From a virus (taxonomy: Duplodnaviria > Heunggongvirae > Uroviricota > Caudoviricetes): DNA of 40,498 bases. A program made the position numbers and the translations under genes. Of this stretch, positions 18,323-38,946 are shown piece by piece (positions within the stretch are counted from its first letter, which is position 1; each line of letters opens with the position of its first letter). The stretch lies in IMG/VR virus record IMGVR_UViG_2734482533_000012; one strand, written 5' to 3'. The notes beneath the pieces were generated by a model. It saw nothing but the letters and a program-made list of their open reading frames with translations. It made no database searches and was not told the DNA's origin.

Positions 18323-19780
18323 TTAGGAGCGCCAAAAAAAACCTGAAAACAATATAATAACAGGATAAATTTCAAGGCGACCAAGAATCATAGCTATGCA
18401 CATTAAATATTTTGCAATGTCATTAAGCACTCCGAATGACGATGCAGTAGCCCCAAAACCTAATCCCATATTATTAATACATGCAGCCACTGTTGCAAAT
18501 GATGTAAGAAAATCATATCCCATACCATTTAACACCAGTATAAAAAACACCGTGAAGAGAGTATAAAGAAAAAAGAAACTCCATACAGACCTCATTACAC
18601 GATCTGTAACTATCTTCCCTCCTACATTTACACTCAACAACGCTCTGGGATGAGAAAGCTGATTTATCTCGTGTTTGCTTTGTTTGAAAAGTATAAGAAA
18701 TCGAAGTGACTTAATTCCACCACAGGTTGAACCTATACATCCCCCAAAGAAACTTGACAACAGCAAAAACACTATCGTGTGCGTGGGCCAGTTTGCATAA
18801 TCCTGCGTAGCTAAACCATTATCAGTGAGCATGGAGCTGGCAAGAAAAAACGAATGAATAAAACTTCCATGCAAGTCATACATACCTATATGCCAGACCT
18901 GGAAAGAGGTAACAATGATCACCCCTAAGGCTATTAACAGAAAGAAACGAAGTTCAATATCTCTGATTAAAGGTTTTATCGTTTTTCTGCTAATAACAAT
19001 ATACCAAAGAGTGAAGTTGAAAGCCGATAGCAGGGAAAAAGAACCAGCCACCAGCTCAACCAAATAGTTATTAAAATATCCGATACTCTCGCTATGAGTT
19101 GAGAAACCACCAAGCGAAACTGTGGAAATCCCGTGACAAATAGCATCAAACAAAGGCATTCCTGCAAGTCTATAACAGACAATACAAGCAATACCTAATA
19201 AAGAATAAGTTATCCACAGTGTCCGTGACGTATCGGCCAGGCGGGGAGTGAGTTTGTCATCCTTAAATGGCCCCGGCATTTCTGACTGATAAAGCTTTGC
19301 ACCACCAATACCCAATAATGGCAATACTGCAACCGCCAGAACAATAACTCCTAAACCACCTATAAAATTTAACTGTGACCGATAGTACAAATATGCCCGA
19401 GGTAATGAACTAACATCATCAATTACAGTTGCTCCTGTTGTTGTTATTCCAGAAACCCCTTCAAACAGAGCATCAATGAACGTTAAATTAAGTTCTGAGT
19501 CAATCCATAAAGGGAATGCACTAATAACAGAAAACAAAATCCAAAACATTACAATTATAATAAACCCATCACGGGTACGTAATTGAATGCCAGATTTCTT
19601 AGTTGTATACCACGCTCCGCCACCAATGCAAAAAAATATAACGAAAGTTATAAAGAAAACGAACAGGCTTTTTTCTTTATAAAACAATGCTACAACCATT
19701 GGTGGCAACATTGAAAGACTATAGAGCCAAACCAGGAACCCACACATATGAGTAACAACTCTTACATGAGATGTATTCAT
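18323..19780 (-). CDS. trkG: Trk system potassium uptake protein TrkG
   Basis: 485 aa from MNTSHVRVVTHMCGFLVWLY...; matches E. coli TrkG (a Rac prophage gene) from memory. Multi-pass membrane protein in markedly AT-rich DNA. Confidence 0.9.
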   Translation of the reverse strand: MNTSHVRVVTHMCGFLVWLYSLSMLPPMVVALFYKEKSLFVFFITFVIFFCIGGGAWYTTKKSGIQLRTRDGFIIIVMFWILFSVISAFPLWIDSELNLTFIDALFEGVSGITTTGATVIDDVSSLPRAYLYYRSQLNFIGGLGVIVLAVAVLPLLGIGGAKLYQSEMPGPFKDDKLTPRLADTSRTLWITYSLLGIACIVCYRLAGMPLFDAICHGISTVSLGGFSTHSESIGYFNNYLVELVAGSFSLLSAFNFTLWYIVISRKTIKPLIRDIELRFFLLIALGVIIVTSFQVWHIGMYDLHGSFIHSFFLASSMLTDNGLATQDYANWPTHTIVFLLLSSFFGGCIGSTCGGIKSLRFLILFKQSKHEINQLSHPRALLSVNVGGKIVTDRVMRSVWSFFFLYTLFTVFFILVLNGMGYDFLTSFATVAACINNMGLGFGATASSFGVLNDIAKYLMCIAMILGRLEIYPVIILFSGFFWRS

Positions 19781-19917
19781 ATCTAAATATTCTTTCAATT
19801 ATAACCACCTTGCTGCAATATTATGATTATACTGTATAAAATTTAACTCCTCTTAGATCTTACTTCACTGTTCCTTATGAAACAATCATCAAAATGAATC
19901 ATATTGTAGTTAAGATT

Positions 19918-20382
19918 TTACTTTAAACACTGCTCGGTTATGTATTGCTGAGCACCTTCAAGTTGGGCCTGCATCATTACCAGTCGTTCCCGGAGGGTGA
20001 AATAATCCCGTTCAGCGGTGTCTGCCAGTCGGGGGGAGGCTGCATTATCCACGCCGGAGGCGGTGGTGGCTTCACGCACTGACTGACAGACTGCTTTGAT
20101 GTGCAACCGACGACGACCAGCGGCAACATCATCACGCAGAGCATCATTTTCAGCTTTCGCATCAGCTAACTCCTTCGTGTATTTTGCATCGAGCGCAGCA
20201 ACATCACGCTGACGCATCTGCATGTCAGTAATTGCCGCGTTCGCCAGCTTCAGTTCTCTGGCATTTTTGTCGCGCTGGGCTTTGTAGGTAATGGCGTTAT
20301 CACGGTAATGATTAACAGCCCATGACAGGCAGACGATGATGCAGATAACCAGAGCGGAGATAATCGCGGTTACTCTGTTCAT
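19918..20382 (-). CDS. Spanin, inner membrane subunit (Rz)
   Basis: N-terminal TM segment then coiled coil; ATG overlaps the endolysin stop (ATGA); contains Rz1 in the +1 frame. Confidence 0.8.
19977..20162 (-). CDS. Spanin, outer membrane lipoprotein subunit (Rz1), embedded in Rz
   Basis: 61 aa, [20 protein letters not shown] (lipobox) followed by a Pro-rich segment [15 protein letters not shown]; same strand as Rz, different frame. Confidence 0.8.
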
Positions 20383-20876
20383 TGCTGACCCCACAAACAG
20401 ATTTCACGCTCAATCTCACGACGAGTCATGAGACCTTTCCATTGCTTACCGCCAGCATATGTCCAGCGACGTAGCTGATCACATGCGCCTTTGATATCGC
20501 CCTGGTTTATTTTGCGAAGAAGCGTCGATGTTCTGAAATTGCCAGCGCCCACGTTGTAAACGAACGAGTAAAGAGCGCCGCGCGTTGTTTCCGGTATATC
20601 GACTTTGATGTACGGGTTAATTTGTCTGGCGACAGTGGCAAGGTCTTTATTCAAGAGTGTTTTGCATTCTGCTTTGGTATACGTTTTACCGAGCATGATG
20701 TCTTTTCCTGTATGCCCGTGACATACAGTCCATACACCAACAATATCTTTGTATGGTATGTAGCTGACACCTTCCAGACCATCGTTACCACTTGGGCCAG
20801 TGATTAACACTGATGCTATAGCAATTGCTCCGCCACCAATAGCAGCAGCAACGACTTTTCGTAATGATGGAGGCAT
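20379..20876 (-). CDS. SAR endolysin (phage 21 R-type lysozyme)
   Basis: 165 aa; N-terminal Gly/Ala-rich signal-anchor-release segment ([18 protein letters not shown]) and a T4-lysozyme-like catalytic region; near-identical to phage 21 R from memory. Confidence 0.85.
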
Positions 20877-21091
20877 TATTCACCTCTCGCAGCCTTGCGC
20901 TTATCTTCTTTAATCTTGAAATAAAGGTTTGTCAGGTACGTCAGCAGGCCAAATACCAGACTACCCAGCACACCGATTGCAGCCCACTGTGACGGAGTTA
21001 CTCTATCGAGCAACTGTAAAAACCAGTAGCCAGCACTGCCTGCGGAGGTGCCGTAGGCAATGCCTGTTGAAATTTTGTCCATGGATTTCAT
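20876..21091 (-). CDS. Pinholin (phage 21 S-type class II holin) with dual start MKSMDK
   Basis: Translation [31 protein letters not shown]...[13 protein letters not shown] matches phage 21 S; strong GGAGGTGA ribosome-binding site; the track ORF extends to an upstream Met without one. Confidence 0.85.
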
Positions 21092-21192
21092 AGCCTCACC
21101 TCCGCACGGAACGGATGGCATAGTTATTATGTGTAGGCTTTCAGACACATCAATCAGAGCCTTAATTGATATATATGCTGGAGACGATGCAA

Positions 21193-21342: not shown

Positions 21343-21738
21343 CTAACCTCGCATGTCAAAGCCAGATTTCTGAAAATCTCTGTAGACTTCCGGATTGTTG
21401 AAGGCCGGAAATTTGGCTTTATGAGCTGCGGACTTTATCGCTTCGCAATAGGCTTTATCACCGTTACTGGTAGATATTTTTAACGCCGTGCCATCCTGAG
21501 AGAATTCCATATGCAACCTGCATTTTTTCCCTTTCCAGTTATGCGGCTCATCAAGTTTGGCATTAATTGCAGCTCTGATTCCCCGCGCTTGCGCCCCCCA
21601 TTCATCCTGATCATCCCAGCGTCCTGAACTGCAACTACCTGTAGCAGTAGTTTTGTGGCAATCTGAAGGGTGTAAAGGTGTGCATCCCGCAACAAAACCG
21701 ACCCAAAAAGTCAACATAACGATTTTCTTTAATCCCAC
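21343..21738 (-). CDS. Lipoprotein with TolA domain III-like C-terminus (paralog 2, more divergent)
   Basis: 131 aa from GTG with AGGAG upstream; signal peptide with lipobox FVAGC; C-terminal KGKKCRLHMEFSQDGTALKIS...YCEAIKSAAHKAKFPAFNNPEVYRDFQKSGFD parallels the TolA C-terminal domain. Confidence 0.7.
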   Translation of the reverse strand: MGLKKIVMLTFWVGFVAGCTPLHPSDCHKTTATGSCSSGRWDDQDEWGAQARGIRAAINAKLDEPHNWKGKKCRLHMEFSQDGTALKISTSNGDKAYCEAIKSAAHKAKFPAFNNPEVYRDFQKSGFDMRG

Positions 21739-21888
21739 TTCTTGCTCCTCAATCCATTAAAATCTCAGCAATAGTAGTTGTTACGTCCGCCACTGGCTCA
21801 GAGCTGACTATCCGCTAAATTTAGCTCAGTGCCGTAGCTGTGTCAGAACAAACCTAAGCCGAAACCGTTTATTACAAAACAATAAATA

Positions 21889-22317
21889 TCAGGGTTTAAA
21901 ATCCAGCACCCCATTTTGAAATACTTTATATACTTCCGGCGAAGGGGGGGCAGGTATATCAGCATTCTTTATCGCATTCATCGCTTCACGACATAAATCG
22001 AGGTCTCCACTTTCTCTTTTAACCTCCAGTAGAAGGCCATTCGGGGCCATATGCATTCTCAGTGTACACTCTTTTCCTGAATACTTACTCGCATCCCCGA
22101 ACTGTTTTTCGATGGCGCTCTTGATTTGATGGGCATACAGACGGATATCCTCACTAACATCAGAAGTACGTTCAGATGAACTCACATACTGTGTCTCTAT
22201 TGCTTTATCGGAGTAATATGATGTACGGTCATGATAATTTGTCGATACAGCATCAGTGCACCCGATAATAATCCCACTAATAATCAACGTAAGAATTGAT
22301 GCGCTACGAAAACCCAT
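21889..22317 (-). CDS. Lipoprotein with TolA domain III-like C-terminus (paralog 1)
   Basis: 142 aa; lipobox IIIGC; C-terminal YAHQIKSAIEKQFGDASKYSGKECTLRMHMAPNGLLLEVKRESGDLDLCREAMNAIKNADIPAPPSPEVYKVFQNGVLDFKP aligns closely with the C-terminus of E. coli TolA (...CTLRIKLAPDGMLLDIKPEGGDPALCQAALAAAKLAKIPKPPSQAVYEVFKNAPLDFKP) as recalled. Confidence 0.75.
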   Translation of the reverse strand: MGFRSASILTLIISGIIIGCTDAVSTNYHDRTSYYSDKAIETQYVSSSERTSDVSEDIRLYAHQIKSAIEKQFGDASKYSGKECTLRMHMAPNGLLLEVKRESGDLDLCREAMNAIKNADIPAPPSPEVYKVFQNGVLDFKP

Positions 22318-22344
22318 TTTTCCTCACATATGTCATATAGTAAA

Positions 22345-22377
22345 GGATTATATATACCGTTGTTTTGGACGCTCAAA
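22345..22377 (-). promoter_or_regulatory. Candidate sigma-70 promoter for the TolA-like lipoprotein genes
   Basis: Minus strand reads TTGAGC - 16 to 18 nt - TATATAAT, about 25 nt upstream of the GAGGA ribosome-binding site. Confidence 0.45.
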
Positions 22378-22904
22378 CAGCGAATCAGATCAAATAAAAC
22401 GCACATTTGTTAACATTTACACAAAGTCTGCGTGGGATATTCTGAAAGAATATCCATAATGTGGAGAGAATCTATTGAAGTGCATGGTGCCGGGTGCCTC
22501 CCGGTGAACAAAATGTTCGTGATACCTGTCGGCGACAGAAAAGGTTAATGGTATCACCCCACCGCACAGGGGGATTCACCATGCAGGAGTTTTCTTAGCA
22601 AACTCACTGCGCGCCCGGCAACTCCCAACCACATAAAATGCGGAGTTTGTGGCATTTATGCATATAACTCGCAGGAATTATCTTAAAAAACTGATGTCGA
22701 TCCGGATTAAAAAGAAGCAGGTCATCATCAGATGACTGGAAAAAAGGAAAACAAAAAATACTCATCATACAGTTTTGATTGCAGGGATGAGCCTGCTATG
22801 CACAATATGCAGAATATAAGCAAGATAAAAATATGCAGGCATATTATTTCGGATCTTGTTATTAACACAACCTTTTTAATAATCATTTGGCATACAATAA
22901 ACCA

Positions 22905-22934
22905 GCCCAAAAAGAACCGCCTAAACAGGCGGTT
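22905..22934 (-). terminator. Intrinsic terminator in the late leader region
   Basis: Minus strand reads AACCGCC-UGUUUA-GGCGGUU followed by CUUUUUGGG. Confidence 0.5.
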
Positions 22935-23253
22935 GGTCAATACAAAGGATGCTTCGTCTTTATTATAGTAATCTGAGGCGTCGGGTGTCTTGTATCAGAC
23001 AACATATTGTCCCGCTAAACAGCGAATTACAAACCACCCTGCAATGATCTCTCATCTCATTTTATATGAGTTGACGACATCAGGATAACGCATCATCAGC
23101 CCCTGCCAAGAAATATCAAAACTCCCGCCAGCAATGTGTTATCACAATATTGTAAAAAAAACACAGCACCGAAACTATAACTGGTCTCTGTTATAATTTG
23201 GAGCAGAAAGACCAGTTGCCCAACTAGCAGCATTCTCCCCTGCTTTCCTGACG

Positions 23254-23361: not shown

Positions 23362-23904
23362 TCAAGCCATTTTCTCAGCAAATGATTCACGCATGGGAAT
23401 ATATAGGGCATACTCAGCAACAGCTAACCAATTAGCAATCCGTTTTTCGCATGTGCTAAAACACCACTCTGGGTGTGCATCATTTAGCAATTCAGCCATT
23501 TTGCGCTTAGTCATCCCCCGCCCTTCATAGCGTTGCCGGAGAATGCAAATCAATCCTGGATGCTCTGCCAGCACCTCACTTATGACTCGATCAATACATA
23601 ACGCCTCTGCATCAGTACAATGCGCCAGCCAGCTCTTTTGCTTGCCGTTGATCATCTCTCGCAAAAACGCTTCCAGCTCAGCTTTCTCTATTCCCGCTTT
23701 TTTCATTCTGCGCAGGGCTTCATTAATGGCTGTTTTCGTCAGTTTTTTGGATGCCAACAACTGATTGAACATATTCCCTGACCTGCCACCGCCAATATAC
23801 GACCAGCGCCCCCACATACGTAGTTTTCCCTGAATCCAGACACTTTCCAGCGTGGTGAGGCGAAGGTGTTCTCCGCTTTTTCCTGTATTCGTTGGGTAAA
23901 TCAT
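23362..23904 (-). CDS. Putative late-gene antiterminator Q (assigned by position)
   Basis: 180-aa ORF after the ybcO-like gene and immediately upstream of a terminator and the lysis cassette, which is the Q position in lambdoid phages; no sequence similarity to lambda Q. Confidence 0.45.
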   Translation of the reverse strand: MIYPTNTGKSGEHLRLTTLESVWIQGKLRMWGRWSYIGGGRSGNMFNQLLASKKLTKTAINEALRRMKKAGIEKAELEAFLREMINGKQKSWLAHCTDAEALCIDRVISEVLAEHPGLICILRQRYEGRGMTKRKMAELLNDAHPEWCFSTCEKRIANWLAVAEYALYIPMRESFAEKMA

Positions 23905-26562: not shown

Positions 26563-27564
26563 TTAGTAATCTGCGTGTTTCGCACTTTTCAGAAATGCTT
26601 TCATATTTTCATTAGGTCGCTCAATTTCGAAGTTACTTCCATATAACTCTTGTAATTTTGGCCATAACTTACTTAATAACCCTCTCCTGCGATAAAATGG
26701 ATGTATCCAAACGGTAGATAGGTACGGAGAATTTGCATTTGAATTGTTTATTGTGACCAGCCCAACTAAACATTGTCGATAACCACTATTATCCATTGAT
26801 TGTATTTCTTCGACGAATGGATACGCGATTACATCAGTCCAACCATGATCGGTTGTATCCCATTGCATTCCGTCATGACATTCCTTCGACTGATAGCGGC
26901 GTAAAGCTACACACGCGAGCTTTTGCCAATCTGGAGAATTAATTGTGATCTCTTCATCGTATGACGCGCCTATTGGAGCGGGTATTGGTCTGATTAATCC
27001 AGCATGGCATTCATCATAGAACTTCATGTTTCCCTCAGAAACGTTGTGTACGTTGGGTTGCTCCATGTGTGCGCCATTCAAAAATAGCTCTGATAGTAGT
27101 GTATCTACACTGTAATCTTTATTGATTATTGTCGGCTTAGAGTTTTTCTTATTAAGGCCGCGAGTAACGATTTTTTGATCAATGTTAACAACATGGAATA
27201 ATCCGTCGGGGAGGCTAGCGAACCACGATGGGGCATCGGACCAGAATAGCATGCCTTTTGTACTTCTTAAGAGTTTAATTAAGTTAATACAAGCTTCTTC
27301 ACTAGTCTTGCCGTTGATGCGAAGTATGTTAGGACTAAAGTAATATTCATCCATATCAGGGAATGCAGCTTCGCAAAACTCCTGTACATAATTTAGCACC
27401 TGGATTCTACAGAGATCATCATAGCTGGTAATAACTAAGGGGGTATCTTCATTACTATTATGATTATCAATAATGCAATCTATAGCGAGACTTACTGCTT
27501 TGCGTATCACTTCAGTTGAATCTAACGACTCTAAAAATTTTGTCTTTCGTGTGCGAATATCCAT
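26563..27564 (-). CDS. Hypothetical protein B (333 aa), second gene of the AT-rich accessory operon; weak GNAT-like C-terminal motif
   Basis: ORF 15 bp downstream of gene A; C-terminal ...YLSTVWIHPFYRRRGLLSKLWPKL... loosely resembles GNAT motif A; no recognisable phage function. Confidence 0.6.
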   Translation of the reverse strand: MDIRTRKTKFLESLDSTEVIRKAVSLAIDCIIDNHNSNEDTPLVITSYDDLCRIQVLNYVQEFCEAAFPDMDEYYFSPNILRINGKTSEEACINLIKLLRSTKGMLFWSDAPSWFASLPDGLFHVVNIDQKIVTRGLNKKNSKPTIINKDYSVDTLLSELFLNGAHMEQPNVHNVSEGNMKFYDECHAGLIRPIPAPIGASYDEEITINSPDWQKLACVALRRYQSKECHDGMQWDTTDHGWTDVIAYPFVEEIQSMDNSGYRQCLVGLVTINNSNANSPYLSTVWIHPFYRRRGLLSKLWPKLQELYGSNFEIERPNENMKAFLKSAKHADY

Positions 27565-27579
27565 GTATGACCTGCGCTA

Positions 27580-28602
27580 TTAAAATTCATGAATGAACGG
27601 TTTGTCATCTGGTTGCAAAATGGTGGTTTTATTCGTTGCTACATTTAAACTGTTGTAGAGCATAATTGCCAGGTTCGATGCATTTTCAATCAGCGTTTCA
27701 AGATCCTGGTCTGTAATCACTACGAGGTTCCCTTCTTTATCCTTTCCACCACGATGCACTAAGTGATTTCGATTGAGGGTTGCCAATTCAATAGCTTCTA
27801 TCGGACAGTCTTTTTGTACTTTTATATCGAATGTAGCTTCATAGCGGTCGATTACCTTTTTAGTGCTATGCCAGCTTGCACTGATCAAGTGTTCCTTGAT
27901 TGACCTGATTAGCTCTCCCCTAATTTTCTCGATGGGTTCACCCTTGAAAGGCAACGCAGCAATATCTTTGCTTACTTTAAATTCAGTCTTACCTTTTTCT
28001 ATACAATTGGCTATGTAGACATCATCTTTCTCTATAGAATTAATGAATAGCTCAACATAAAGCGTTTCCAAAGCTGTAATAACATTCGTGTAGAGCAAAC
28101 TAAGCAAGTGGTTTTTTTGCTGTTGTTCAGTTTTATCTTTTGCAAGTTTTTTTATTTTATCGATATTATCAATGAATTTTAAATACGGATTACCGGAAGA
28201 CGTTACAGCGTCGTAGATATCATCATCGTACCAATCATCTATATTATTTGAGTTTCCAGACCAGTCAAAACATTGTGTTTGTAATTCATCTACTAATTCC
28301 TCAATATACTCAGATTTAACATATTGACCGAAGATGGATTGTAGTTCTTCGCTCGCATCATACGGCCCGCCATATATGTAAGCATAGCCACCTTCTCTAC
28401 TTTCATACGGACAAGCATTTGCCGGATCTTCAAAGTTTTCAAAGAACCAGTTTTTCATTACTTCGAGTTGATCTTTTTTGCTTATGTATTTTAAAGATTT
28501 TAGTGGAACTTTCTTTCCATTAACCTCGAAAACAATTTTCACGATGTAACGCTCCCTTGTATCAATTGCGCAACTATTATACCACAGCGAAATACAGGGC
28601 AT
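27580..28602 (-). CDS. Hypothetical protein A (341 aa), first gene of the AT-rich accessory operon; C-terminal Rx4H (HEPN-like) motif
   Basis: Start at ATG 28602 (MPCISLWYN...) with a perfect AAGGAGG ribosome-binding site 6 nt upstream; contains ...ATLNRNHLVHRGG... (R-N-x3-H); AT-rich relative to flanking genes. Confidence 0.6.
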   Translation of the reverse strand: MPCISLWYNSCAIDTRERYIVKIVFEVNGKKVPLKSLKYISKKDQLEVMKNWFFENFEDPANACPYESREGGYAYIYGGPYDASEELQSIFGQYVKSEYIEELVDELQTQCFDWSGNSNNIDDWYDDDIYDAVTSSGNPYLKFIDNIDKIKKLAKDKTEQQQKNHLLSLLYTNVITALETLYVELFINSIEKDDVYIANCIEKGKTEFKVSKDIAALPFKGEPIEKIRGELIRSIKEHLISASWHSTKKVIDRYEATFDIKVQKDCPIEAIELATLNRNHLVHRGGKDKEGNLVVITDQDLETLIENASNLAIMLYNSLNVATNKTTILQPDDKPFIHEF

Positions 28603-28740
28603 AACCTGCCTCCTTAAACTAACATACCATGAGCCAGCAATGTCCGCTATTGGCACAAAGCGGACAACCACGCTAGCTCTCCCCTGTGCCAGAAAAATGT
28701 CAATTTACATATGAACTAATGCTCTTTGATCTAGTAACGT

Positions 28741-38757: not shown

Positions 38758-38946
38758 ATGTATAAAATTACCGCCACTATTGAAAAGGAAGGTGGCACTC
38801 CTACTAACTGGACAAGATATTCAAAATCTAAACTAACGAAATCAGAATGCGAAAAAATGCTCTCAGGTAAAAAAGAAGCAGGCGTTTCCAGAGAGCAGAA
38901 AGTAAAACTGATAAATTTTAATTGCGAGAAACTTCAGTCCTCGTGA
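38758..38946 (+). CDS. ydaC: YdaC-like small protein
   Basis: Start at MYKITATIEKEGG... preceded by GGAGGTG; the track ORF begins further upstream at 38686. Confidence 0.55.
   Translation: MYKITATIEKEGGTPTNWTRYSKSKLTKSECEKMLSGKKEAGVSREQKVKLINFNCEKLQSS

Follow-up and report, generated by a model that had tools for sequence, protein, structure and literature searches.

Tandem prophage lipoproteins with TolA domain III-like C termini as candidate periplasmic decoys in Escherichia coli

RESULTS

Two tandem genes for predicted small lipoproteins

The stretch of DNA analyzed here, referred to as the window (40,498 nucleotides; IMG/VR record IMGVR_UViG_2734482533_000012), is a Rac-like lambdoid prophage of Escherichia coli. 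It carries two tandem genes, A and B, whose products are predicted lipoproteins ending in a domain of the TolA domain III (TolAIII) type and are considered below as candidate periplasmic decoys for colicins or filamentous phages that enter through the Tol system. A 1.3-kb query was 100% identical to chromosomes such as ECCHD184, in which the element adjoins ompN and uspF and includes trkG, recET, and intR; the phage mEp460_ev081 matches the window at 99.9%. All positions below refer to the window, and all features described lie on its minus strand.

Gene A is an open reading frame (ORF) of 142 amino acids (22317 to 21889) that starts with ATG and is preceded by GAGGA 3 nt upstream. Residues 1 to 20 (22258 to 22317) form a signal peptide with a lipobox that conforms to the PROSITE-type rule (TLIISGIIIG, followed by C20), with R4 in the n-region and Thr at position +2. 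It is followed by an acidic linker rich in Ser, Thr, and Tyr (residues 21 to 54; 22156 to 22257), for which the predicted local distance difference test score (pLDDT) is below 50 over residues 18 to 50. The remainder (residues 55 to 142, with the stop codon at 21889 to 22155) was assigned to TolA domain III by Pfam, alignment, Foldseek, and the ratio of nonsynonymous to synonymous substitution rates (dN/dS).

Gene B (21738 to 21343; 131 amino acids) has a GTG start codon and lies behind a 150-nt spacer (21739 to 21888), in which a reading of the sequence places its ribosome-binding site, GAGGAG, 6 nt upstream of the start (21745 to 21750). The signal peptide (residues 1 to 19; 21682 to 21738) again fits the PROSITE-type rule (LTFWVGFVAG, followed by C19), with K4 and K5 in front and Thr at +2. 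The linker (residues 20 to 43; 21610 to 21681) is disordered in the model and conserved across genera; it contains a Cys loop, CHKTTATGSC, and the beginning of an acidic motif with two tryptophans, SGRWDDQDEWG, which extends into the domain, so that the conserved stretch covers residues 27 to 47 (21598 to 21660). The TolA domain III-like domain occupies residues 44 to 131 and, with the stop codon, positions 21343 to 21609, as indicated by Pfam, Foldseek, and dN/dS. In RefSeq, B starts at a downstream Met, which deletes the positively charged n-region of the signal peptide. Since homologs of B retain the KKIV segment of this n-region, the GTG start is favored.

In E. coli, a lipoprotein that does not have Asp at position +2, the Lol avoidance signal, is sorted to the outer membrane. 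A and B are therefore predicted to be outer membrane lipoproteins of the inner leaflet that face the periplasm. A preliminary description of this DNA, made from its letters alone, had tethered them to the outer leaflet, and this has to be corrected. The remainder of what it said about the two proteins holds, that is, the ORF coordinates, the tandem arrangement on the minus strand, the two lipoprotein signal peptides, and the almost residue-for-residue alignment of A, and the more divergent but collinear alignment of B, with the C terminus of TolA.

The spacing G-x-W … W-G with acidic residues in the linker of B loosely resembles the TolB box of colicins E2 to E9 and A. This is a weak lead: in the model W47 is part of the first helix, and the tryptophans are absent from more distant homologs.

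The C-terminal domains have the sequence and predicted fold of TolAIII

Both proteins matched Pfam TolA_C (PF06519) far above the gathering cutoff of 25 bits, A with 82.6 bits (2.4e-23) and B with 54.6 bits (1.3e-14); TolA_C and TonB_2 were the only Pfam domains found in them. A phmmer search with A against the TolA chains in the PDB gave 5e-28. A aligns without gaps to residues 334 to 421 of E. coli TolA with 52 of 88 residues identical (59%), and it ends in GVLDFKP where TolA ends in APLDFKP. B is collinear with the same segment (27 of 88 identical), and A and B are 28% identical to each other over their full length. The cysteine pair C363/C388 (E. coli numbering) is aligned in both. In the AlphaFold2 models of A and B, the domains reach a pLDDT of about 90 and the linkers are disordered, and the predicted structures show the TolAIII topology of helix-strand-strand-helix-helix-strand. 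Indeed, the best structural matches were crystal structures of TolAIII, among them complexes with g3p and with colicin A. The top Foldseek match of A was E. coli TolAIII 2x9a_B (root mean square deviation [rmsd] of 0.7 Å over 88 residues), and that of B was E. coli TolAIII 3qdp (rmsd of 1.1 Å; TM of 0.92).

The likeness to TolA ends at this domain. Neither A nor B contains the membrane anchor or the helical domain II of TolA; the domain is preceded by nothing but a lipoprotein signal and a linker of 24 to 34 residues, and both genes lie outside the tol-pal operon. Matches to the NCBIfam TolA equivalog models are confined to the C-terminal ~80 to 100 positions (293 to 386 of 387). In NF007065 (cutoff, 213 bits), A scored 107.8 bits and B scored 53.7 bits, and neither qualifies as full-length TolA. 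In TIGR02794 (cutoff, 59.45 bits), A was above the threshold with 75.6 bits and B was below it with 47.2 bits. In addition, both proteins matched phrog_5772 over its full length (6.7e-65 and 1.6e-62).

Genuine TolAIII was compared across 13 enterobacterial genera. Its identity to the E. coli domain is 90 to 92% in Klebsiella and Salmonella and 72 to 76% in Pantoea and Rahnella, the enterobacterial range being 72 to 100%. With 59%, A is more distant from E. coli TolAIII than any of these, and an origin of A by recent acquisition of a host tolA gene was therefore rejected.

RefSeq carries A as a tolA pseudogene with the PGAP label "incomplete, missing N-terminus," and A passes the TIGR02794 cutoff solely by virtue of its C-terminal domain. 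If A were what remains of the 3′ part of an acquired tolA gene, the pair would be without function. However, gene A is equipped with a separate start codon and ribosome-binding site, and its product begins with a lipoprotein signal that is foreign to TolA; the PGAP call is therefore a miscall that should be corrected. The length of 142 amino acids is mostly kept in variants of A at 65 to 91% identity, and comparison of A with a 66%-identical homolog gave a dN/dS of 0.24 in the domain and of 0.50 in the signal peptide plus linker. B is overall more constrained: compared with copies from pO157, Enterobacter, Citrobacter, and Klebsiella oxytoca, its dN/dS is 0.06 to 0.12 (domain, 0.06 to 0.10). 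The linker of B (residues 20 to 46) is, unexpectedly, constrained like the domain, with a dN/dS of about 0 to 0.1. Judged by these ratios, both A and B are under purifying selection. Moreover, most carrier genomes have the pair at an identity of at least 99%, and an identity of 59% is too low for a recent fragment of an enterobacterial tolA. The data on selection and architecture thus contradict the view that A and B are inactive remnants, which we regard as very improbable. RefSeq records of E. coli repeatedly contain the pseudogene label of A and the internal start of B, and both look like errors of annotation.

Docking strands and affinities

Strand β3 of TolA is the common binding site of the N1 domain of g3p, of colicin N, and of the N terminus of TolB, and colicin A binds to β2 (PMC7391070; PMC4339652). 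The β2 strand, 375-LLDIKP-380, reads LLEVKR in A and ALKIST in B; the β3 strand, 415-APLDFK-420, reads GVLDFK in A and SGFDMR in B. The docking strands are conservatively kept in A, and B has β-forming residues and no proline at these places. Binding to β3 is mainly β-strand addition through the backbone and tolerates substitutions other than proline (PMC4339652), and B is therefore still a possible binder. The dissociation constants reported for TolAIII are 1 µM for colicin N, 12 to 15 µM for g3p N1, and 40 µM for TolB (PMC4339652).

Occurrence on prophages, plasmids, and chromosomes

The A-B pair (coverage of at least 80%) is present in 773 of 5,426 complete E. coli genomes, nearly always at an identity of at least 99%. 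A single-protein search of viral contigs returned only 99%-identical copies, and in the GenBank phage collection mEp460_ev081 is the sole record with both A and B. A module of A, B, and the holin gene, combined with varying Q and lysozyme modules, was found in 79 of 80 IMG/VR loci. An A-type gene (66% identical) also occurs alone in other lambdoid prophages, where it follows Q, TfpB, and an AraC-type regulator and precedes nanS-p and the holin gene, that is, in the slot of stx in Shiga toxin (Stx) phages.

B-type genes reach beyond prophages. About 600 IncF plasmids from E. coli and Shigella, pO157 among them, carry such a gene at 88% identity in their leading region, in the order ssb, psiB, psiA, hok, and TolA_C gene. 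At 83 to 86% identity, B-type genes occur as single genes in unrelated chromosomal neighborhoods of Enterobacter, Citrobacter, and K. oxytoca. DNA similarity between the other copies and the window ends ~35 nt or less upstream of the B ORF and, in the case of A, inside the ORF. A search with B of 1.8 billion representative proteins returned 130 relatives; 72 of them are 100 to 175 amino acids long, and 49 of these 72 have a lipobox. By homology, B is not peculiar to phages but belongs to a widespread family with chromosomal members as well, and the predicted lipid-anchored TolA_C protein is a broad, mostly mobile, single-gene architecture.

Further types were found in Klebsiella. On 10-kb ColRNAI plasmids, the gene of a TolA_C lipoprotein (lipobox LLTA, followed by C; Pfam, 2.4e-24) is followed, with a 4-nt overlap, by a gene for a Sec-exported TonB C-terminal domain (8.9e-11), and the two adjoin the genes of a cloacin-like tRNase bacteriocin and of its immunity and lysis proteins. 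The two proteins resemble a pair of mimics, one of the Tol and one of the Ton import hub. On Klebsiella IncF plasmids, another type of TolA_C lipoprotein is encoded just 3′ of a periplasmic thioredoxin-like (CxxC) protein, a neighbor that may have to do with the disulfide conserved in the TolA domain. Some TolA_C proteins of mobile elements also match TonB C-terminal models weakly.

Neighborhood of the gene pair

The order on the minus strand is a Q-like antiterminator gene, ~1 kb of noncoding DNA, gene A, the spacer, gene B, a hairpin, and the genes for holin, lysozyme, and Rz/Rz1; the slot between the Q-like gene and the holin gene is the one that stx takes in Stx phages. The product of the upstream neighbor (23362 to 23904) matched Pfam DUF1133 with 2.5e-107 and, at the borderline, Phage_antitermQ with 8.6e-06 (26.1 bits; cutoff, 26). 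Pattern scans alone gave a candidate late promoter (AAGACA, 18 nt, TATAAT; 22991 to 22962) and, 3′ of it, a terminator-like hairpin (22934 to 22915; joint region, 22915 to 22991). Directly 5′ of gene A and 3′ of the Q-like gene lies a full-length element of the STnc100 family of prophage small RNAs (sRNAs) at 22428 to 22614 (Rfam RF02076; 86.6 bits with a gathering score of 47; E value, 2.3e-17). STnc100 has been tied to PasD sRNAs that adjoin Q genes (2026 preprint), and the element in the window may be a separate sRNA, a late leader, or part of the regulation of gene A. Between this element and gene A there is a σ70 promoter-like site (TTGAGC, 18 nt, TATAAT; 22376 to 22347) that agrees with the consensus at 10 of 12 positions, by motif only. 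A pattern scan gave a weaker site, with 9 of 12 matches, in the A-B spacer (21846 to 21818), and another gave a terminator-like hairpin, AGCTCGCTACGGCGAGCT, with a T-run 3′ of gene B (21217 to 21200).

The downstream neighbor is the lysis cassette (19918 to 21148), assigned by Pfam and the ORF list: a P21-type holin (21148 to 20876; Phage_holin_2_1, 4.5e-35), a lysozyme (20876 to 20379; Phage_lysozyme, 1.8e-45), Rz (20394 to 19918; Phage_lysis, 3.7e-53), and an Rz1-like lipoprotein ORF from the ORF list that is embedded in Rz (20162 to 19977). The preliminary description had seen in A and B a moron upstream of the lysis cassette with a promoter and a terminator of its own. The moron-like character was borne out: the pair is flanked by the Q-like gene and the lysis genes, is modular, and in related phages is inserted in some cases and missing in others between genes that would otherwise be neighbors. 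The promoter and the terminator, however, were called from motifs only; the region contains 11 promoter-like sites, which is not above the 6.7 ± 2.7 found in shuffled sequences. The G+C content of the cassette (0.39 to 0.46) is slightly lower than that of its neighbors (0.46 to 0.50) and is uninformative.

The position inside the late transcription unit, from the Q-like gene to the holin gene, together with the retention in A of the β3 strand that binds TolB, would suit a role at lysis. A and B made from the late transcript could titrate the N terminus of TolB, switch off Tol-Pal, and weaken the outer membrane or raise the shedding of vesicles, thereby aiding lysis and release, and tolerance to colicins or phages would be a side effect. 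Indeed, cells in which the binding of TolA to TolB is blocked show the full tol phenotype, and their outer membrane leaks (PMC4339652); tol-pal mutants hypervesiculate (PMC7391070); and exported TolAIII is used to release periplasmic protein into the medium (PMC6195910, citing Levengood-Freyermuth 1993 and Wan & Baneyx 1998). On the other hand, the prophage already has a complete set of holin, endolysin, and Rz/Rz1, and B-type genes thrive in plasmid leading regions and chromosomes, where there is no lysis program. In addition, the cassette has promoter-like and terminator-like motifs of its own, like morons that are expressed in the lysogen, and the affinity of TolA for TolB, at 40 µM, is weak. 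We consider it unlikely that weakening the envelope is what A and B are for.

Three other features of the prophage were noted. Just beyond the lysis genes lies an ORF for a TrkH-family potassium transporter (18323 to 19798), annotated as trkG in ECCHD184 and a known cargo gene of Rac; its DNA is low in G+C (about 0.31 to 0.33 where sampled, from 19500). Two ORFs of 333 and 363 amino acids (26563 to 28671) gave weak Pfam hints of GNAT (9e-4) and of a HEPN/RES N-terminal domain (1.9e-4). They fill a cargo slot that in the otherwise similar ECCHD184 prophage holds transporter, gamma-glutamylcyclotransferase, and LysR-family genes, and they may be defense-type cargo. Finally, the RalA antitoxin sRNA of the RalR/RalA type I toxin-antitoxin system was found at 38764 to 38942 (RF02694; 225 bits), as expected in a Rac-type prophage.

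DISCUSSION

The reading that we prefer is that A and B are periplasm-facing decoys for Tol-dependent colicins or Ff phages, and we give it a probability of roughly 45%. Each lipoprotein would suspend a free copy of the C-terminal docking domain of TolA in the periplasm on a tether of 24 to 34 residues. Since A and B have neither the membrane anchor nor the long helical domain of TolA, the domain would not be coupled to the TolQ-TolR motor. By β-strand addition, we infer, it would capture those segments of invaders that grab TolA, namely, the translocation domains of group A colicins and the N1 domain of filamentous-phage g3p. Capture just beneath the outer membrane would be a dead end, and entry would stall. 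Because the invaders bind TolAIII more tightly than TolB does, moderate expression should protect the cell without crippling Tol-Pal. At a high dose, when the Q-dependent late operon fires, TolB would be titrated and the outer membrane loosened. A would be a close mimic of E. coli TolAIII and B a representative of an older, divergent, and widely mobile family, and the ligand of B may differ from that of A.

The genomic context adds weight to a role of A and B as decoys or in tolerance. Protection of the carrier would fit the pairing with a TonB domain beside a bacteriocin operon, the site in the IncF leading region, and the scattered distribution as single genes. F-type plasmids specify the pili to which Ff phages attach, and a TolA decoy on such a plasmid would make sense given the need of Ff phages for pili. 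More broadly, and only tentatively, we suggest that the mobile elements of enterobacteria, from lambdoid prophages to the leading regions of IncF plasmids such as pO157 and the bacteriocin plasmids of Klebsiella, carry a hitherto unrecognized class of single-gene protection factors, which consist of TolA docking domains tethered to the outer membrane, sometimes together with secreted TonB C-terminal domains. As mimics of the periplasmic hubs of the import machineries, such factors could make their carriers broadly tolerant to filamentous phages and to bacteriocins that depend on Tol or Ton, and the tandem genes A and B would cover different ligands.

Several points weigh against a decoy function. 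Of the 88 positions of TolAIII, 44 are invariant among the 13 genera compared; A keeps 29 of these and B keeps 18, so that 15 and 26, respectively, are changed, and these changes could mean that A and B have a different partner. Five positions, G334, A335, K368, K402, and A407, are changed in all five types of mobile-element TolA_C lipoproteins compared, with K402 replaced by Ala and A407 replaced by Glu in four of the five types each; the shared changes would reflect either common descent or joint release from a constraint specific to TolA. The occurrence of B-type genes in ordinary chromosomal neighborhoods is compatible with a housekeeping role in the envelope. The promoter of gene A is only a motif match, and placement in the late operon suits a role at the time of lysis equally well. 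One colicin molecule is enough to kill a cell, and a decoy must therefore intercept very efficiently. Among the models of PADLOC-DB 2.0, no match to A or B was obtained at E values up to 1, and we found no study of prophage or plasmid TolA_C lipoproteins or of their binding or protection in a literature search that left most subscription journals uncovered.

Some of these points would also be explained if A and B acted outside the Tol system. The fold of the TolA/TonB type is a general module for β-strand addition, and B in particular, and possibly A, might bind another periplasmic or outer membrane protein, unrelated to the entry of colicins or phages. The low identity of B to TolAIII and its 26 altered invariant positions, which include β2 and β3, point in this direction, as do the chromosomal neighborhoods in three genera and the weak TonB C-terminal model scores of some of the mobile-element proteins. 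Moreover, the linker of B, with its Cys loop and acidic Trp motif constrained like the domain, suggests an additional binding element that is foreign to TolA. However, the docking strands are almost unchanged in A, which superposes on g3p-bound TolAIII at 0.7 Å, and the Klebsiella bacteriocin operon with its secreted TonB C-terminal domain points to the import machineries. Furthermore, no neighboring gene suggests an alternative partner. A partner outside the Tol system thus seems improbable to us, and interception of Tol-dependent invaders is still the interpretation that we favor.

If A and B are indeed decoys, tolerance to a whole class of colicins or to filamentous phages would be built into about one in seven of the sequenced E. 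coli strains and into many strains that carry pO157-type or Klebsiella plasmids. This would bear on the competition of strains in the gut, on antimicrobials based on colicins or phages, and on hosts for phage display. Mimicry of a coreceptor would join the known ways by which mobile elements shield their hosts, and for the Tol-Pal field A and B would be naturally selected variants of TolAIII in which the binding of invaders may be separated from that of TolB.

The homology itself is not new, since it is already visible in RefSeq names and in phrog_5772. The RefSeq name [quoted passage not shown] and PHROG 5772 denote the same proteins, but these labels are without a function, and the PHROG entry reads "unknown function." What appears to be uncharacterized so far is the interpretation, as well as how widely the family extends over prophages and plasmids and its pairing with TonB domains. 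The papers on KingRac, a related Rac-like prophage, make no mention of TolA or colicins. A prophage "TolA" gene that was induced 32-fold in a ciprofloxacin study of enterohemorrhagic E. coli is a tail fiber gene according to the supplement of that study and was discarded as a candidate.

Comparison with known systems

The closest relative in structure is domain III of E. coli TolA itself (PDB 1TOL, 2X9A, 3QDP/3QDR, and 1S62), with which A and B share the fold, the family, and the cysteine pair of the disulfide, and A also the docking strands. Unlike TolA, A and B are encoded by a prophage, are predicted to be tethered by lipid to the outer membrane, and have no link to the motor. Exported TolAIII reportedly also makes cells tolerant to colicins. 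Like the TolAIII that has been engineered into the periplasm by fusion to signal sequences (Levengood-Freyermuth 1993; Wan & Baneyx 1998), A and B would present a free periplasmic domain that is uncoupled from the motor. However, the engineered protein is a laboratory construct of host sequence, soluble and overexpressed, whereas A and B are natural, diverged, and, by prediction, lipid anchored with a tether, and they are under selection on mobile elements.

With regard to function, the nearest parallels are lipoproteins of mobile elements. Cor of φ80 and N15 and TraT of the F plasmid are outer membrane lipoproteins that protect their carrier. Llp of phage T5 (bioRxiv 10.64898/2026.03.26.714494) is likewise a small mobile-element lipoprotein that sits on the periplasmic side of the outer membrane and protects the carrier, as is proposed here for A and B. 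Llp, Cor, and TraT do not contain a TolA-like domain, and they bind and plug a receptor, FhuA or OmpA; A and B are proposed to mimic a periplasmic coreceptor instead.

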